Positions 26,986-36,558 of a stretch of 64,000 bases of DNA are shown here, in pieces. Source of the DNA: Trueperaceae bacterium (GTDB lineage: Bacteria; Deinococcota; Deinococci; Deinococcales; Trueperaceae); contig CBDCDZ010000004.1 of the NCBI GenBank assembly GCA_965215565.1, positions 3,424,001-3,488,000 of the forward strand, read 5' to 3'. Position numbers and translations under genes: made by a program. Position 1 is the first letter of the stretch. The number at the start of each line of letters is the position of its first letter. The notes below the pieces were generated by a model, which was not told the DNA's origin, ran no database searches, and was given only the letters and a program-made list of their open reading frames with translations.

Positions 26986-28590
26986 ATGGACCAACCGCAG
27001 TTTGATTTAGCTACGATTGATATCGTTATCATCGTGCTCTACTTCGTGGGCGTCATCGCGCACGGCGTCTACATGAGCCGCAAGGGAAACGAGGACGCCG
27101 AGGGGTACTTTTTAGCGGGGCGCGGGTTGCCCTGGTACCTCATCGGCTTCTCGCTCTTCGCCTCGAACATGTCGGGCTCGTCGTTCGTCGGGCTAATGGG
27201 CGGGGCGTACGACAACGGGCTCGTCATCTTCAACTACGAGTGGACCGCCGCGTTGGTCCTCATCTTCTTCGCCTTCTTTATGCTGCCCTACTTTTTGCGG
27301 GCGAACCTCTTTACGATTCCCGAATACTTGGAGACCCGCTTCGACAAGCGCTCGCGCTACGCCTACTCCGCCTTTACGGTTTTGGCGATCATGTTTATCG
27401 ATACGGCGGGGGCGCTCTACGCGGGCGGGTTGGTTATCACCACCGTCTTCTCAAACTTCGCGCTGTGGCAGGCAGTGGCAGTTTTAGCCTTCGTCGCGGG
27501 CATCTATACGATTTTGGGCGGGCTTTCCGCCGTCGTCGTGACCGACACGGTACAAGCGATTTTGCTCATCGTGGGTGCGACGGCGATCTTTATCATCGGC
27601 TTAAACCAGGTGGGTGGTTGGGGTGAAATGACGAGCCAGCTCGCGCCCGGTCAGCTCAGCCTTATCAGACCTGTAGGTGACGACTTTCTGCCTTGGCCTG
27701 GTATCTTGGGCGTGATCTTGCTCGGCTTTTACTACTGGACCTTAAATCAGTTTATCGTGCAGCGCACTTTGGGGGCAAGCAACTTAGATGAGGGACGCAA
27801 AGGGGCGCTCTTCGCCGGGCTCTTAAAACTCCCCAACCTCTTCATCATGATATTACCGGGCGTCATGGCGCTCCTCTTATACCCTGAGCTGTCCAACCCT
27901 GACTTGGTTTTCCCGACGCTCGCGTTTGACCTCTTGCCTATCGGTCTGCGCGGGCTCGTGATGTCGGCGCTCATCGCCGCGATTATGTCGAGCTTGGACT
28001 CCGCGCTGAACGCTGCCTCGTCGCTTATCACCTTGGACTTCATCAAAGAACTCCGCCCTGACACCTCGCAGAGTACGCTCGTGCGGCTCGGGCGCATCAT
28101 CACGGGCGTCGTCATGGTCATCGGCGCAATCTACGCACCCGCGATTGCCAGCTTCGAGACGCTCTTTGAGTACTTTCAGTCGGTGCTCTCTTACATCATA
28201 CCGGCCATCGTCGCTGTCTACATCATCGGGCTTTTTTGGAAGCGCATCAACGCGAACGGCGCGTTCTGGACGATCCTTTCGGGTCTCGTCGTCGGCATTC
28301 CCCTCTTTATCATGAAAGAGGTCACGAATGTCTGGACAAATATCGGTCTGCCGAACATCCACTTTACCTACATGGCGGTCCTGATGTTCATCTTCGCTTT
28401 CGTCCTGATGACGGTCATCAGCTACGCCACCGAAGCACCCGACCCCGAAAAGATTCGCGAGTACACCTTTACGCGGGAGAACTACCGGGAGGACATCAAG
28501 GGTCAGGGCGTGCCCTGGTACCGCGACTTTCGCTACCAGTCCGCGGCGCTCTTCGTGCTGATGGCGGCGACGGTGGTGTACTTCTGGTAG
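26986..28590 (+). CDS. Sodium:solute symporter (SSS/SLC5)
   Basis: YFLAGR, SLFASN, TIPEYLETRF, VVVTDTVQ, AAIMSSLDSALN. Confidence 0.95.
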   Translation: MDQPQFDLATIDIVIIVLYFVGVIAHGVYMSRKGNEDAEGYFLAGRGLPWYLIGFSLFASNMSGSSFVGLMGGAYDNGLVIFNYEWTAALVLIFFAFFMLPYFLRANLFTIPEYLETRFDKRSRYAYSAFTVLAIMFIDTAGALYAGGLVITTVFSNFALWQAVAVLAFVAGIYTILGGLSAVVVTDTVQAILLIVGATAIFIIGLNQVGGWGEMTSQLAPGQLSLIRPVGDDFLPWPGILGVILLGFYYWTLNQFIVQRTLGASNLDEGRKGALFAGLLKLPNLFIMILPGVMALLLYPELSNPDLVFPTLAFDLLPIGLRGLVMSALIAAIMSSLDSALNAASSLITLDFIKELRPDTSQSTLVRLGRIITGVVMVIGAIYAPAIASFETLFEYFQSVLSYIIPAIVAVYIIGLFWKRINANGAFWTILSGLVVGIPLFIMKEVTNVWTNIGLPNIHFTYMAVLMFIFAFVLMTVISYATEAPDPEKIREYTFTRENYREDIKGQGVPWYRDFRYQSAALFVLMAATVVYFW

Positions 28591-28619
28591 CAGGCGACGG
28601 TGGTGTACTTCTGGTAGCA
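28566..28619 (+). repeat. Perfect 27-bp tandem duplication spanning the symporter stop codon
   Basis: ggcgacggtggtgtacttctggtagca x2. Confidence 0.9.
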
Positions 28620-28692
28620 GGTATCATCTGGTTTGAGACACGCTCACCGTAGGAAACGATGTCTAACACGCACATTATGAGATGATACCCTT
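28615..28692 (+). mobile_element. MITE family A, truncated copy
   Basis: TAGCAGGTATCATCTGG...GATGATACCC. Confidence 0.8.
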
Positions 28693-29283
28693 CGGGCAGG
28701 ACCATAAGGTTGTGGACATTAGTCCGAAAGTCAGTACCGCAGCAAAAGAGGACGCAAGAAGAGTGATGAGGTAGACGCTGAAAACGTAGCTCGGGCTGCT
28801 TTGGCTGAGCTGACTAAGGCAAAACATCTCGCTAGCTAAACCTTACAGCGCACAAGCTGAGCTTAGCGAGCCTTCTAGAGGTGGCTCGCCAAGTCGAAGC
28901 CATTGCAGTGCTTAAAGAACAACTCAAGACGCTCGAGCAGGCGATATCGTTCTTGCCTGAACTCGGCTTTCACGCCGCCACGCTACTTGCTGAAGCAGGT
29001 GACATCCGCGCTTTCGTTCACAACACGCCTTTGCCATGTATTCAGGTTGTGCGCCTGTCGAGCGCTCTTCTGGTGGTCAGAAGAGAAGGCAACTCAACAT
29101 CGGCGGCAACCGTCGGCTCAACCGCACCTTTCACATGATTGCCCAAGTCAGACTGCGCCACAGCGAACCGACAAGAGCCTATCTCGACAAGAAACAGCAG
29201 CAAGGCAAGACCCGCCGGGCTGCTCTAAGAAGGTCAGCAGCACCCACAGAGGTGGAAGGGGGCTTGACAACTCTATACTAAGT
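28693..29283 (+). pseudogene. IS110-family transposase remnant
   Basis: KKSDEVDAENVARAAL and GGNRRLNRTFHMIAQVRLR..TRAYLDKK..GKTRRAALR fragments in different frames; ends GGGGCTTGACAAC. Confidence 0.8.
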
Positions 29284-29352
29284 TCATCTGGTTTGAGACA
29301 CGCTCACCGTAGGAAACGATGTCTAACACGCACATTATGAGATGATACCCTT
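29284..29352 (+). repeat. MITE family A core, identical 69-bp direct repeat of 28624-28692
   Basis: Base-for-base identity at a 660-bp offset. Confidence 0.9.
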
Positions 29353-29744
29353 GCCGGTTATGAAATTTTTGCGGATGCAAAAGGCAAAACTTCGTCCCTG
29401 CGGGCTTTCAGAAAGCGGCATTTTGTCTCAGTATGTCTTGGAACTGCTTTGGTGAGGACGCGGTAGGCTCGAGGTGAATAGGTAGCTCGAGCCTATCCCT
29501 CTCGTTGCTGATGAGGGTATACCGAGCGCACAAGCGCGATAAGACGCCTGAGCTGTTTTGCAGAGCGCGAAGCAGGGTACCTCTAAGGGTTCGTGCCGAC
29601 TCTTCTAATGTCTTTCGCAGTTTTAGGTGGGTGCATTGATGACTGGATGCCATCCGCTGCCTTCATGAAGATGAGCGTCTGTGGGCTACGTTCATATTTA
29701 TTAAAATGTGATTTGTTACGCTTTTGCAAAAGGAGGCGAGTTTT

Positions 29745-30461: not shown

Positions 30462-31991
<1,530 letters not shown>

Positions 31992-32061
31992 CGTATGATA
32001 AAGGCTATGAGAGTCCCTACTCGCTTCGATGCTCGCACTGGGGGTTACGAGGAGGTTGCCT

Positions 32062-32421
32062 ATGTTCGCTAGCATGAGCCACAACGAACTCGTCGCCCAA
32101 GTCGAAGACGTGGTGAGTGACGCCCGCAAGCGCCTCGGTGTAGAGGTAGAGATGCTCGCGGGCAAGCGCGAAACCGACTTGGCTCTACTTATCACTAAAG
32201 GTGAGAAGAAGGATGCGATGGCGCTGCCGGTTCACCTGCAGGACTACTTGCCCTACGCCGATATCGAACTCATCGCCTCGCAGGTGCAAGGCGCAGACTA
32301 CAAGCTTACCCTAGTCGTCACGCGCAAACTGCGCGAGCAGCCCAGCCAAGAGATGGAGCGCCGCGCTAAGCTGCGTAACTTCAGTAAGCGGGTGTCGTCG
32401 CCGAGTTTGCGCAGACGCTAA
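32062..32421 (+). CDS. Hypothetical protein
   Basis: SD GAGGAGG before ATG 32062; genome-typical codon use. Confidence 0.6.
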   Translation: MFASMSHNELVAQVEDVVSDARKRLGVEVEMLAGKRETDLALLITKGEKKDAMALPVHLQDYLPYADIELIASQVQGADYKLTLVVTRKLREQPSQEMERRAKLRNFSKRVSSPSLRRR

Positions 32422-32534: not shown

Positions 32535-32645
32535 TAGCAGTTCCACAACATATTGAGACAGTTGAGCGCAGATATCATCCCTTGAAGTGCGTGCTAGACA
32601 TTGTTTTACAAAGTGCGAGTGTCTCTGACCAGATGATACCTGCTA
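32535..32645 (-). mobile_element. MITE family A, full-length copy (111 bp)
   Basis: TAGCAGTTCCAC...CCAGATGATACCTGCTA. Confidence 0.85.
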
Positions 32646-32759
32646 AAGCATTACCTTAAAAATGAATCCTGAAAACCCTTTGCTCCGAAGAAACGTTAGT
32701 TAAAGCATTCACACGCTTGAGTTTGAAAAGCTCACACTTCTTTTTTGCTGTATAAACGG

Positions 32760-32788
32760 TTGCATATTCACGCCTGTTCTGCTACACT
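32760..32788 (+). promoter_or_regulatory. Sigma70-type promoter of the leader-peptide unit
   Basis: TTGCAT-17 bp-TACACT with extended -10 TG. Confidence 0.7.
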
Positions 32789-32826
32789 TTTAAGTGCCCA
32801 TGAAGGGCGGAAAAGGAGGTGCGAAG

Positions 32827-32958
32827 ATGGTTCAGATTCATACCCAAGTCAAGCCTAAAGTTTGCGCGAAGCCGAGCTGCGAAGCGGTTTATCTGAGCGG
32901 CTGCATGGCTGGACTTCATAAGGGCTTCGCATCACTAGGGGAGACGTGTTTGAGTTGA
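32827..32958 (+). CDS. Putative 43-aa leader peptide MVQIHTQVKPKVCAKPSCEAVYLSGCMAGLHKGFASLGETCLS
   Basis: Strong SD AAAAGGAGGT (32811-32820); followed by a terminator whose 5' arm can pair with the last codons. Confidence 0.65.
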   Translation: MVQIHTQVKPKVCAKPSCEAVYLSGCMAGLHKGFASLGETCLS

Positions 32959-32979
32959 CTAACTCGAGCCGCACCGTTT

Positions 32980-33008
32980 CCCCGACCTCATCCGTCGGGG
33001 TTTTTTTT
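32980..33008 (+). terminator. Intrinsic terminator / attenuator
   Basis: CCCCGAC-ctcatcc-GTCGGGG-T8. Confidence 0.9.
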
Positions 33009-33125
33009 GCCCCAAGCAGGTTTGTCTGGTCACGAACACCCTCACCGAATGATGCGCAAGCTAACGCGCACATTCAAGGACAATATCTGCGCAATTCAAA
33101 ACCAGCAATTTCTAAGGAGAACCAG

Positions 33126-33263
33126 ATGTTTACTGATCCAATGCTTCAAATTGCCAAAGACCACGCCCGCGACCTGCGCCGCAAAGCCAGACGCGACGCG
33201 CTAGCCAACTACCCAGACCGCGAAAGACGCCCCCGTATTCTCAGATACTGGGCGAACCGCTAA
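33126..33263 (+). CDS. Small basic protein P1 (45 aa)
   Basis: SD AAGGAGA; MFTDPMLQIAKDHARDLRRKARRDAL... Confidence 0.65.
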   Translation: MFTDPMLQIAKDHARDLRRKARRDALANYPDRERRPRILRYWANR

Positions 33264-33278
33264 AACCACACGTTTTGA

Positions 33279-33414
33279 TAGCACTTCCACAACATACTGA
33301 GATAGATGAGCGCAGATCTCTGTCCGTAAGGACTAGCGGGATTTCATCTCAGAATGTGCGTTCTAAACGATGTTCTCTACAGTGGGAGTGTCTCCAACCA
33401 GATGATACCTGCTA
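33279..33414 (-). mobile_element. MITE family A copy with about 25 bp extra internal sequence
   Basis: TAGCACTTCCAC...CCAGATGATACCTGCTA. Confidence 0.8.
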
Positions 33415-33457
33415 CAAGAAGTGGCGCGGCGGCTTCGACTCGGCAAGAGGAGAGCCG

Positions 33458-33646
33458 ATGATTCACTCAGATAAGTTTTTAGAGCGCACCGCCAAAGACC
33501 AAATGTAAGACTTCCAGAAAGAAGCCGCCATAGAGCGCCAGCGCCCTAGCTACCGCCAGCGCTTAGCTGCTCGTTTGATGAAAATTGCGAAGTGGCTCGA
33601 GCCCGAAGCCGAAAGCGCTCCTGCGCCCGAGCTTCTAAGCCGCTGA
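33458..33646 (+). pseudogene. Small protein P2 with in-frame TAA at 33506-33508
   Basis: SD AAGAGGAG; MIHSDKFLERTAKDQM*DFQKEAAIERQRPSYRQRLAARLMKIAKWLEPE... Confidence 0.65.
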
Positions 33647-33745: not shown

Positions 33746-34429
33746 TTATTTAGGAGAGTCCTTCACAGGTGTAAGTCCCAGCGTGAAATAGTAGCGTTGC
33801 TCCGAGGATGACTCGGGTCTCGAGTATCGCCCCAACAATTCCGACAACTCCCGCTGAAACGCCTTCGCCTCTTCGAACGTGAGCGCGGTGAAGCCGTTCG
33901 TAACCCATACGGCGGGAAAGTCGGGGTCGAGGATGCTCGCGCCCGGTCTTTCCGCTTCGGGTTTGTGAGAGGGCGCGAGGCGGGCGACGCCACTCTCCCC
34001 CTCTTTCGCCAATAAGACGCCCCAACTGTCGGCTCGGTCTAAGAATGTTTGTGCGAGGTTGCGGATAAAGCGCTCCGAAGAGGCGTGCAGCATCTCGCTA
34101 ATGAGCGCTTCTAACGAGGCGTAAGGCGTCACTTCGAAAGGGGCAAAAAACGCCTCGGCGCTCGCCCGGTACACCTTGACGGCTCGCCCCTTGCGCGGCT
34201 CCTCCCGCGCCACTTCGATAAGCCCCAAAGCTAGGAGTTTTTGCACGCGGTAGTGCATCGCGTTGAGCTTGAGCCCAACCTCCGCCGCCGCTTCGCTGAG
34301 CGTTCTCTCGCCGCGTATAAAGGGGTTTAGAAAATGCCGTTCGGCAGGGTCCGCTAAGACCCGCGCCGCTTCGGGGTTTGTCACCACAACCGTTTCATCT
34401 GCGGGCTTGTTCAAAGAGGTGTCTTCCAT
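33746..34429 (-). CDS. ArsR-like winged-helix transcriptional regulator
   Basis: AARVLADP..TLSEAAAEVGL..MHYRVQKLLALGL..GRAVKVYRA. Confidence 0.8.
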   Translation of the reverse strand: MEDTSLNKPADETVVVTNPEAARVLADPAERHFLNPFIRGERTLSEAAAEVGLKLNAMHYRVQKLLALGLIEVAREEPRKGRAVKVYRASAEAFFAPFEVTPYASLEALISEMLHASSERFIRNLAQTFLDRADSWGVLLAKEGESGVARLAPSHKPEAERPGASILDPDFPAVWVTNGFTALTFEEAKAFQRELSELLGRYSRPESSSEQRYYFTLGLTPVKDSPK

Positions 34430-34595: not shown

Positions 34596-34799
34596 ATGTG
34601 GAGGGAAACGAGTTTCGTAATTCGGGAAGGTCAAGATAAGCTCGCTCGCTATCATCAAGAGGTCAGCCGCGCGAAGATGCTGGGTCACACGTCACTGAGA
34701 AGTCGCCTGGCACAGACACTAAGAGGTTGGGCGGAGCGGCTCGAGCCTACTCCCCTCCCTTCTCGAGTAGACAGACAGCCCGCCAAAAGCGCACACTAA
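34596..34799 (+). CDS. Small basic protein P3 (67 aa), first gene of the ABC operon
   Basis: SD AAGGAG; RSRLAQTLRGWAERLEP motif shared with P2. Confidence 0.7.
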   Translation: MWRETSFVIREGQDKLARYHQEVSRAKMLGHTSLRSRLAQTLRGWAERLEPTPLPSRVDRQPAKSAH

Positions 34800-34802
34800 G
34801 CC

Positions 34803-35801
34803 ATGTCCATCATCCGACTCGAGCACGTCACCAAGCGCTACGGAAAACGCAAGTCGAAAGAGGTCGTTACCGCCGCCGAAGACGTGTCGTTCGAGGTGGC
34901 GAGAGGTGAAATCTTAGGGCTTTTAGGTCCGAACGGGGCAGGGAAAACAACGACGATCAAAACGATTTGCGGACTTCTCAAACCCGACGAGGGGCGCGTC
35001 ACCGTGAACGGCGTGGATAATCAGCGCAAGAGGTTGGAGGCTCTGCGGCATATCAGCGCCGTGCTAGAAGGCAACCGCAACCTCTACTGGCGCTTGAGCG
35101 TGCGGGAGAACTTGGAATACTTCGCGGGCAACCGGGGCGTGTCGCGGCGAAGCGTTAGGGGCAAGATCGATGACCTCTTGGCGCGGTTTCGCTTAGAGGA
35201 CAAAGCGGGCGAGTTAGTCAACAACCTCTCGAGGGGGATGCAGCAAAAACTCGCCATCGCCGTCGCCATGCTCGCCGAGACCGAGGTCATCCTCTTAGAC
35301 GAGCCGACGCTCGGGCTGGACGTAGCGACGGGCTACGAAGTCAGAAGACTGCTCCGCCAAGTCGCGAGTCAAGGACGCACCATCATTGTGAGCACCCACG
35401 ACATGCCCGTGGTGCAAGACCTCTGCGAGCGCACCGTGATTATCAACGCAGGGCGGGTGGTGGTGGACGATAAGGTCGAGAACTTGATGCGACTCTTTGA
35501 AACGAGAGCGTACGTCGTTACGCTGGGCGCACCGCTCAGTTCGGAGCAGCAGCGGCGGCTAGAGCGTGCGTTTCCGGTTCTGAGCTACGACAACGGGGAG
35601 AATAGTGGCGGGGAGAAAGGGACGCTCAAGGTGAGCCTCGAGCACAGCGACGCCATCTACGACCTCATGGAGATTTTGAGACTCGAGCGCACCCCCGTCG
35701 AAGCGATAGACCGCACCGCTGTCAATTTCGAGCGGGTCTTTATGGAACTCGTCAAAGAACCTGAACCGGCGGAAAGCGAAACCGAACATGCTCTGGTTTA
35801 A
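34803..35801 (+). CDS. ABC exporter ATP-binding subunit
   Basis: GPNGAGKTT, LSRGMQQK, ILLDEPT. Confidence 0.95.
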   Translation: MSIIRLEHVTKRYGKRKSKEVVTAAEDVSFEVARGEILGLLGPNGAGKTTTIKTICGLLKPDEGRVTVNGVDNQRKRLEALRHISAVLEGNRNLYWRLSVRENLEYFAGNRGVSRRSVRGKIDDLLARFRLEDKAGELVNNLSRGMQQKLAIAVAMLAETEVILLDEPTLGLDVATGYEVRRLLRQVASQGRTIIVSTHDMPVVQDLCERTVIINAGRVVVDDKVENLMRLFETRAYVVTLGAPLSSEQQRRLERAFPVLSYDNGENSGGEKGTLKVSLEHSDAIYDLMEILRLERTPVEAIDRTAVNFERVFMELVKEPEPAESETEHALV

Positions 35802-36558
35802 CGTCTTAGAGGCGAACGTCCGCAAAGTCGCGATCGAACTGCGGCGCTACTTACCTAATACGCTCAGTTTACTGTTCACTTTCTACGCGGTCTTCTTCGG
35901 TCTTTTCTTGGGCGTTCAGTTCCTCGGCTCGCCCGAAGACGCGGCGCAGGGGACGCCCTACATCATCGTCAACACGGTGCTCTGGTTTTTGGCGCTCATG
36001 GCGATGCAGGGCATCGGCTGGGAGATCGAGCAGGAGGCGACGCGGGGCACCTTAGAGCAGCTCTACATGTCGCCCGTGGGCGCGTGGCGCATCCTCCTGG
36101 CGCGGATGATAGGCACTGTACTCGCTAACGCGCTCGTCATCGCGGTGATGCTCGTGCTCGCGATGCTCACGGCGCAGAGGTGGCTCACCTTTGACCTCTT
36201 GACGCTTTTACCCGTGCTGTTCTTTACAATTTTATGTATGCTCGGCATCGGCTTTATGGTGGCAGGGCTCGCTCTGATGTTCAAACGGATTCAGGCGTTT
36301 TTGCAGATTGCGCAGTTCATCTTTTTGGCGCTCGTGTCGGTGCCGCCCTTTGTGGGCTGGCTCGAGCTTCTCCCCGTCATCAAAGGCTCGGACATGATTC
36401 GCCGCACGATGATCGAGGGAACCTCTCTCCTGCAGTTTTCCTCACTCGACTGGCTCTCGCTCGCACTGAACGCCGCCGTATACTTCGCGCTCGGCGTGCT
36501 GCTCTACCGGCTTGCCGAAAAGCGGGCGATGCGGTTGGGACTTTTGGGGCAGTATTAG
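35788..36558 (+). CDS. ABC-2 type permease
   Basis: Six TM segments, EATRGTLEQLYMSP. Confidence 0.9.
   Translation: MLWFNVLEANVRKVAIELRRYLPNTLSLLFTFYAVFFGLFLGVQFLGSPEDAAQGTPYIIVNTVLWFLALMAMQGIGWEIEQEATRGTLEQLYMSPVGAWRILLARMIGTVLANALVIAVMLVLAMLTAQRWLTFDLLTLLPVLFFTILCMLGIGFMVAGLALMFKRIQAFLQIAQFIFLALVSVPPFVGWLELLPVIKGSDMIRRTMIEGTSLLQFSSLDWLSLALNAAVYFALGVLLYRLAEKRAMRLGLLGQY

Follow-up and report, generated by a model that had tools for sequence, protein, structure and literature searches.

The window analysed here, a 64,000-nt stretch of a 4.5-Mb Trueperaceae genome, encodes an Arg-rich protein of 45 aa, whose family has not been described, behind a leader that is probably a ribosome-coupled transcription attenuator of the whiB7/bmrB type, sensing a general slow-down of translation. 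The family across which the element is conserved is, by database labels, Trueperaceae. An earlier note had read the locus as an attenuator coupled to the ribosome and controlling a small basic protein, and comparison across the family now backs that reading through the spacing of the leader stop, the antiterminator, the neutral drift of the leader sequence, the conservation of the gated gene and the existence of leaderless relatives. The positions that it gave for the promoter, the Shine-Dalgarno (SD) sequence, the 43-aa ORF with four Cys, the terminator and the 45-aa gene all match the sequence.

Promoter and 5′ Region of the Leader

Transcription is predicted from sequence to start at about 32795, downstream of a sigma-A type promoter with an extended -10 element (32760–32788, + strand). 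The promoter comprises a -35 hexamer TTGCAT (32760–32765), a 17-nt spacer, a TG at 32780–32781 and a -10 hexamer TACACT (32783–32788), and the same motif was found in 42 of 67 loci examined. It had been described as near-consensus; the promoter is present and conserved, but only 8/12 hexamer bases agree with the consensus, which is why a strict promoter scan missed it. Overlapping the -35 element in the 42 loci is a conserved box (32750–32769, + strand) in which G-x-A-T-A is followed by five bases and TTGCATA. Relative to the TTG, the G at -10 is present in 39/42 loci, the A at -8 in 36/42, the T at -7 in 40/42 and the A at -6 in 40/42, these loci having been chosen by their hexamers and not by the G-x-ATA box. 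The box is a possible operator or activator site. A matrix of the full promoter, whose training set included the locus itself, scored 37.4 bits here and 16.8 bits at the next best site on the main contig; scanning the genome with it found no regulon sharing the promoter box. Such uniqueness suggests a dedicated regulator without a regulon. In the spacer between the terminator and the gated gene, the promoter matrix found no further site.

The 5′ end of the transcript would fold into a hairpin, GCCC-loop-GGGC (32795–32809, + strand), which is part of the minimum free energy (MFE) structure and in three congeners keeps its stem with a changed loop. Where transcription is predicted to start, a GTG/ATG in frame with the leader ORF (32794–32826, + strand) could extend it in a leaderless manner, both here and in the congener G002; in G001 a stop codon lies within that stretch. 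The leader SD region (32814–32826, + strand) contains AGGAGG at 32814–32819, and is followed by the leader ORF (32827–32958, + strand) with Cys at residues 13, 18, 26 and 41. In the MFE fold, 32818–32826 pairs with 32925–32933 (codons 33–36), forming a helix that hides the SD. This helix is retained with changed bases in G002. Its z score here is -1.15, shuffled sequences are beaten at p<0.05 in 2/30 loci, and the pairing of a locus with its own partner exceeds the median foreign pairing in 14/21 loci; family-wide support is thus only moderate.

Terminator and Antiterminator

The leader ends in an intrinsic terminator (32980–33008, + strand) with a 7-bp stem (32980–33000) and a tract of eight U residues. 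Its computed stability is -12.7 kcal/mol, which 2/200 shuffled sequences equalled. Upstream, the RNA can form a bulged antiterminator rod (32938–32983, + strand) that carries the leader stop at its apical loop and captures the CCCC of the terminator; this rod has a free energy of -24 kcal/mol (z -3.6), and 0/200 shuffles were as good. The helix that the earlier note proposed, 32938–32949 with 32971–32983, is contained in the MFE structure as part of this longer, bulged rod reaching to 32983. Among congeners, the apical stem has both one-sided and two-sided changes, while the outer pairs are invariant and show scant covariation. The same note had suggested folding 32900–33010 as a check; taken alone, the segment 32900–33012 is not unusual (z -1.0). 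The entire leader (about 215–221 nt) folds better than 200/200 shuffled sequences. A further hairpin, GGGG-U-tract-GCCCC (32997–33013, + strand), also belongs to the MFE structure and is possible only after read-through; a hairpin of this kind is more stable than -1 kcal/mol in 28/30 loci, a count that has no shuffle control. At this locus, the terminator has a computed probability of 0.01 if the RNA is free of ribosomes, which rises to 0.98 when a ribosome occupies the leader from codon -9 on. Rfam covariance models gave no match at the gathering score to the leader, the best scores being 18–20 bits and far below gathering, and an Rfam scan of the window returned one tRNA only.

The Proposed Switch Across the Family

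Between promoter and gene, 48 of the 67 loci have an SD-led open frame, as judged from sequence, with three of the starts placed by hand. In 30 of these 48, from 14 genera, the leader is separated from the gene by a terminator at least as stable as -9 kcal/mol, and the gap from terminator to gene is 25–102 nt in 26/30. The other 18 leaders have no intrinsic terminator. Rho-type control of these 18 was considered and is not supported, because only spacer length differs between the two groups (178 nt without and 91 nt with a terminator); spacers are rich in C in both, with a median C/G ratio of 1.51 without and 1.62 with a terminator. Six loci (L143, L144, L148, L152, L165 and L196) lack both leader and terminator, and in these the same promoter lies 52–102 nt upstream of the gene. 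G110, which belongs to the same genus as a leaderless member, retains the attenuator. Our script detected neither state in 13/67 loci, which may in part reflect a detection limit. One doubtful locus, L220 (in genome G028), was excluded from the hairpin and codon counts. Another genome, G035, is the source of a single locus among the 30 with a terminator and of a Cys-free leader, and the conclusions do not depend on it.

The earlier note had suggested examining the conservation of leader and stems, and the outcome was divided: the stems, the stop spacing and the gated gene are conserved, while the sequence of the leader peptide is not. Leader ORFs range from 21 to 62 aa across the 48 leaders (25–62 aa in the 30 terminator loci). 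The leader in the window is 37% identical to that of G002. Six close pairs of leaders show 21 synonymous and 64 non-synonymous codon changes, two further pairs that differ in length having been left out. The peptide drifts as if neutral. By this comparison its amino acids do not matter, and it would act by the position of the ribosome. The end of the frame, by contrast, is fixed: the leader stop lies 21–37 nt before the terminator in 27/30 loci and 13/14 genera, compared with 6/60 for the other two frames, and in 25/28 loci when the two hand-placed starts among the 30 are removed. Since the 21–37 nt window was picked post hoc and the loci are kin, we regard this as a strong pattern and attach no formal test to it. 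In three loci with a terminator the leader stop is 43–75 nt away from it. Judged by sequence comparison, a frame that is free to change its residues but ends at a set distance from a terminator has the look of a ribosome-position sensor. A 105-codon open frame (32946–33263, + strand) also crosses the terminator into the 45-aa gene.

The antiterminator, computed to be mutually exclusive with the terminator and to have its 5′ arm in the leader ORF, was likewise compared across loci. Equilibrium folding of the full leader gave a clean OFF/ON switch in only 14/30 loci, and the model therefore needs co-transcriptional folding. When nascent RNA was folded as it would be before synthesis of the terminator's 3′ arm, the 5′ arm was captured upstream in 29/30 loci and released in 26/30 once a ribosome occupied the stop, with both in 25/30. 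Capture is common by chance in GC-rich RNA, as 149/200 terminator-like hairpins of the genome exceeded a probability of 0.5; at a probability above 0.9, the figures were 21/30 homologues versus 63/200 such hairpins. The terminator arm pairs better with the end of its own leader than with the median foreign leader in 17/21 loci, and an unrestricted duplex test of the antiterminator beat shuffled sequences at p<0.05 in 7/30. A second structural type was found in 10 loci from three genera. Here, nine bases of the terminator arm can pair in every sequence, compensatory changes occur in the hairpin that contains the stop codon, and 8/9 of the outer antiterminator pairs are invariant. In this type the antiterminator arm lies 10–15 codons upstream of the stop, farther than a single ribosome would cover, and the switch may therefore depend on trailing ribosomes.

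Proposed Mechanism

We propose that the sigma-A promoter starts a leader of about 215 nt, in which a strong SD precedes an ORF of 43 codons. A ribosome trailing the polymerase and positioned at the last nine or so codons, or at the stop, would cover 32938–32949, and the antiterminator would not form. With the antiterminator blocked, the terminator, a computed structure, would end transcription at its U-tract. Late initiation or an earlier stall, as might be caused by a ribosome-targeting antibiotic, amino-acid starvation or a shortage of ribosomes, would let the antiterminator form before the 3′ arm of the terminator exists, and the polymerase would then read into the 45-aa gene and the one or two small paralogs behind it. 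The helix that hides the leader SD might, with weak support, hold an untranslated leader in the ON state.

What the Leader May Sense, and Alternative Explanations

Cys residues in the leaders are not enriched over stop-free shuffles (z 0.4; a total of 64 compared with 69 in another frame). Adjacent Cys residues occur in 1/48 leaders, there is no tract, and positions scatter. At least one Cys is present in 43/48 leaders and in 16/18 genera compared with 13.1 expected (P ~0.02, with kin that are not independent). The leader has four Cys here, five in G001 and one in G002, where the single Cys is four codons before the stop. For Ala codons z is 1.8, and no alanine-like bias stands out. No family-wide arrest motif was found in the leaders. 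Among 103 neighbouring ORFs scanned, many of them without a Pfam hit, no cysteine-pathway gene was found. By analogy with the whiB7 uORF, the signal is most likely a general slow-down of translation and not the supply of one amino acid.

These observations bear directly on the idea, raised in the earlier note, that the leader is a cysteine sensor in which ribosomes pause at Cys codons under cysteine limitation and read-through follows. The frequency of Cys-containing leaders could be taken in its favour, as could the view that any amino acid coded before the switch point could trigger the response, as reported for the whiB7 uORF. Against it stand the lack of enrichment or a tract, the varied positions, the absence of a cysteine gene downstream and the leader of G002, in which a stall at the only Cys would favour termination; we consider such a sensor highly improbable, and that part of the earlier proposal is not supported. 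An arrest peptide specific to a drug or metabolite, in the style of ermC or CruR, seems every bit as improbable. Its appeal comes from the C-terminal GETCLS, which is identical in three congeners, from an A-P-x-G-like stretch that is in frame in several genera, and from E-G-P-P in the second structural type. Such residues, however, coincide with helix arms that are conserved as bases. They do not extend to the whole family, and in G110 the bases concerned are read in a different frame. The copper-sensing uORF CruR (DUF2946) is defined by conserved CXXC and RAPP motifs; neither is conserved among the leaders, and both are absent from this one.

It is also possible to see the leader as a structured non-coding element, either a riboswitch or a protein-controlled antiterminator, in which the frame is incidental. 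A fold that beats 200/200 shuffles, the conservation of several helices and a neutral peptide would all suit that explanation. However, the SD and start are kept, the frame stays open despite drift and the stop spacing is specific to it (27/30 versus 6/60), while the interior has no conserved sequence able to bind a ligand and no Rfam match; on balance we think this very unlikely. We would say the same, with slightly more conviction, of a self-contained gene for a peptide or small RNA that ends in a constitutive terminator, behind which the 45-aa gene is expressed by leak-through or from its own, possibly repeat-borne, promoter. The unit is indeed complete in promoter, SD, ORF and terminator, and in the genus a repeat copy fills the spacer. 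Nevertheless, the peptide is not conserved, the gap from terminator to gene can be as short as 25 nt, and leaderless relatives link the same promoter straight to the gene; the repeat was detected with its profile in only three congeners among the 67 loci. The earlier note had named an own promoter for the gene with constant read-through, or a stand-alone peptide gene without a conserved antiterminator, as findings that would speak against attenuation, and neither was seen: the leader promoter is the one joined to the gene in leaderless relatives, and the antiterminator is conserved. A ribosome-coupled attenuator responding to slowed translation thus remains the preferred explanation.

The Gated Protein and Its Operon

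The gated gene (33126–33263, + strand; SD at 33114–33119) encodes 45 residues, 11 of them Arg. The C-terminal 17 residues are conserved in a 39-row alignment, in which a P, a W and an N are invariant, and follow the motif Y-x-D-x-E-R-x-P-R-x-x-x-[HY]-W-x-N-R. Eight pairs of homologues show 50 synonymous and 24 non-synonymous codon changes, as expected of a gene under purifying selection, and on this sequence evidence the 45-aa product is a real protein. Using a 39-row profile, the gene was found in 61/102 genomes of the family and in 0/198 genomes from four further families within the phylum; a 3-row profile had found it in 47/121 family genomes. At the DNA level, a comparison with 61 genomes gave good matches in only two congeners. 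When 1.84 billion representatives were searched without filters, 55 matched at E≤0.001, of which 54 are stand-alone proteins of 40–75 aa and the remaining one is a low-complexity, repetitive protein of 895 aa. The database entry P0003 is a version of the gated protein extended at the N terminus to 71 aa, probably by a wrong start. A loose DNA pattern run against the genome collection gave 117 or more scattered matches in unrelated taxa; these were attributed to chance and not used.

The protein has no Pfam, NCBIfam or PDB assignment, and atlas look-ups gave only matches below 0.9, all to hypothetical proteins. It is not a WhiB protein, having no Cys and no WhiB match, nor a DUF1127 protein, as 0/39 members matched PF06568 at E≤1; a search of the genome found no WhiB family member and no DUF1127. 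Over its N-terminal 28 residues it is related to the products of the small helical genes downstream (HHalign 91%). The operon consists of the 45-aa gene together with small paralogs, either one or two.

The second small helical gene (33458–33646, + strand) is a pseudogene here, interrupted by a TAA at 33506–33508, and is an intact 62-aa ORF in G001. Contigs identical to the window cover this TAA in both sequencing runs, and other contigs of run X2 have a sense codon. A copy of a genome-wide repeat lies between the gated gene and this paralog (33279–33414, + strand); it is strain-specific and absent in G001. A contig of run X2 skips it, and co-occurring contigs from the same sample have neither the insertion nor the stop. 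The second small gene, along with a repeat copy in the leader-to-gene spacer (33015–33097), the 5′ hairpin and the SD-hiding helix, had been missed in the earlier reading.

The last codons of the 45-aa gene are nearly always AAC CGC before the stop, and in many homologues they can pair with a GCGG segment 10–50 nt downstream (33250–33263 with 33423–33440 in the window, where the hairpin is split by the repeat insertion; L002:1200–1290 on the - strand). This pairing beats shuffled spacers at p<0.05 in 16/65 loci, and in G001 the fold of the gene end near the next SD is striking (z -4.3). The possibility that the gated gene serves as a second leader that opens the SD of the next gene was rejected as a general mechanism, because only 4/43 loci show the SD opened by more than 0.3.

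Genomic Neighbourhood

Of the 32 genomes with both the gated gene and an ABC-2 exporter, 22, from seven genera, encode the permease on the same strand and no more than 7 kb downstream (counted by hand). Among 13 maps, five, including that of G035, place the exporter directly after the operon with no terminator found between them. In three others (this genome, G117, and G079/G034 counted as one lineage) a convergent helix-turn-helix (HTH) gene lies between operon and exporter. Here, the convergent gene cuts the exporter off, and only the small genes would therefore be gated. This HTH_20 regulator (33746–34429, - strand) is divergent from a small helical gene (34596–34799, + strand) and the ABC-2 exporter (34803–36558, + strand). 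The arrangement recurs at C4:3252500, where another HTH paralog is divergent from a small gene of this type. As a general rule, a partnership between the small genes and HTH regulators was set aside as a weak lead, with only 2/11 HTH paralogs having a divergent small gene.

The spacer copy at 33015–33097 (- strand) is a degenerate member of a genome-wide repeat of about 111 bp (nhmmer E 4.7e-9) and lies outside the switch; among the 67 loci, the repeat profile matched only three congeners. The repeat is intergenic and MITE-like, with inverted ends TAGCAG...CTGCTA, and gave 525 profile hits and 98 BLAST hits of at least 95 nt genome-wide. Further copies in the window are at 32535–32645 (+ strand), 28615–28689 (- strand) and 29284–29448 (- strand). 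The gene proS (30549–31991, + strand in the window) precedes the module here, as it does in several further genera, and is followed by a 130-aa ORF (32029–32421, + strand) without a Pfam match. Farther upstream, a 27-nt tandem duplication (28566–28619) lies at the end of a transporter gene. Short ORF fragments, which we take to be transposase-like, are flanked by two identical copies of a 69-nt direct repeat that lie 660 nt apart (28624–29352).

Comparison With Known Attenuators

The same ribosome-coupled logic has been reported for whiB7, bmrB and rli53 (10.1101/2023.06.02.543512, PMC4191407, PMC11550727). The whiB7 uORF is described there as varying in length and sequence and as responding to antibiotics and to starvation for the amino acids that it encodes (10.1101/2023.06.02.543512, PMC11550727). 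The whiB7/wblC leaders of Actinobacteria resemble the present one in having a long, variable uORF whose full translation leads to the terminator and whose poor translation leads to the antiterminator, and in controlling a small product. In contrast, the locus in the window shows no sequence relation to them, no WhiB domain, no Ala-type bias and no shared-motif regulon. In Bacillus subtilis, the bmrB leader of bmrCD is similar in its roughly 50 codons, its ribosome-mediated attenuation and its link to an ABC exporter (PMC4191407). However, the bmrB terminator is reported to lie inside the coding region, while here it follows the stop and the exporter is cut off (PMC4191407).

In Sinorhizobium meliloti, duf1127-1 is reported to be gated by a uORF and induced by tetracycline, probably in a Rho-dependent manner (PMC12218461). 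It shares with our locus a translation-monitoring uORF, a small Arg-rich protein and a helix that hides the ribosome-binding site (PMC12218461). It is said there to act through C-rich codons at the uORF start, unlike the intrinsic terminator and antiterminator at the uORF end here. The polycysteine attenuators reported in mycobacteria likewise place a short ORF with Cys codons upstream of the controlled gene (10.1101/834739). They differ in being leaderless, having a Cys tract, acting on translation and controlling cysteine-metabolism genes, none of which applies here (10.1101/834739). Among the top-listed matches in Creative Commons literature in PMC and in bioRxiv, we found no such attenuator for Trueperaceae or other Deinococcota; subscription papers and supplements may list it.

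Possible Functions and Implications

Genes behind ribosome-sensing attenuators, such as those for WhiB7, ABC-F proteins and drug exporters, are needed when translation is impaired. The 45-aa family is therefore a candidate translation-stress factor. The protein may act as an effector through its conserved basic-aromatic C-terminal tail, and its partner would most likely be nucleic acid, with the ribosome as the leading candidate and its own promoter as the next. A more far-reaching view, which we regard as rather unlikely, is that a WhiB7-like circuit evolved independently in Deinococcota, with a 45-aa iron-sulfur-free effector that feeds back and a tie to the neighbouring ABC-2 exporter. The protein would then bind the G-x-ATA box, together with sigma-A region 4, and amplify the response; alternatively, it would be a new stress factor that binds the ribosome by way of the invariant tail at its C terminus.

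The switching principle at this locus is already known. What is new is the cargo, a conserved family of small proteins with no known relative. Moreover, the family represents a natural series of two attenuator types, terminator-less leaders and leaderless loci, and thus of the gain and loss of switches.
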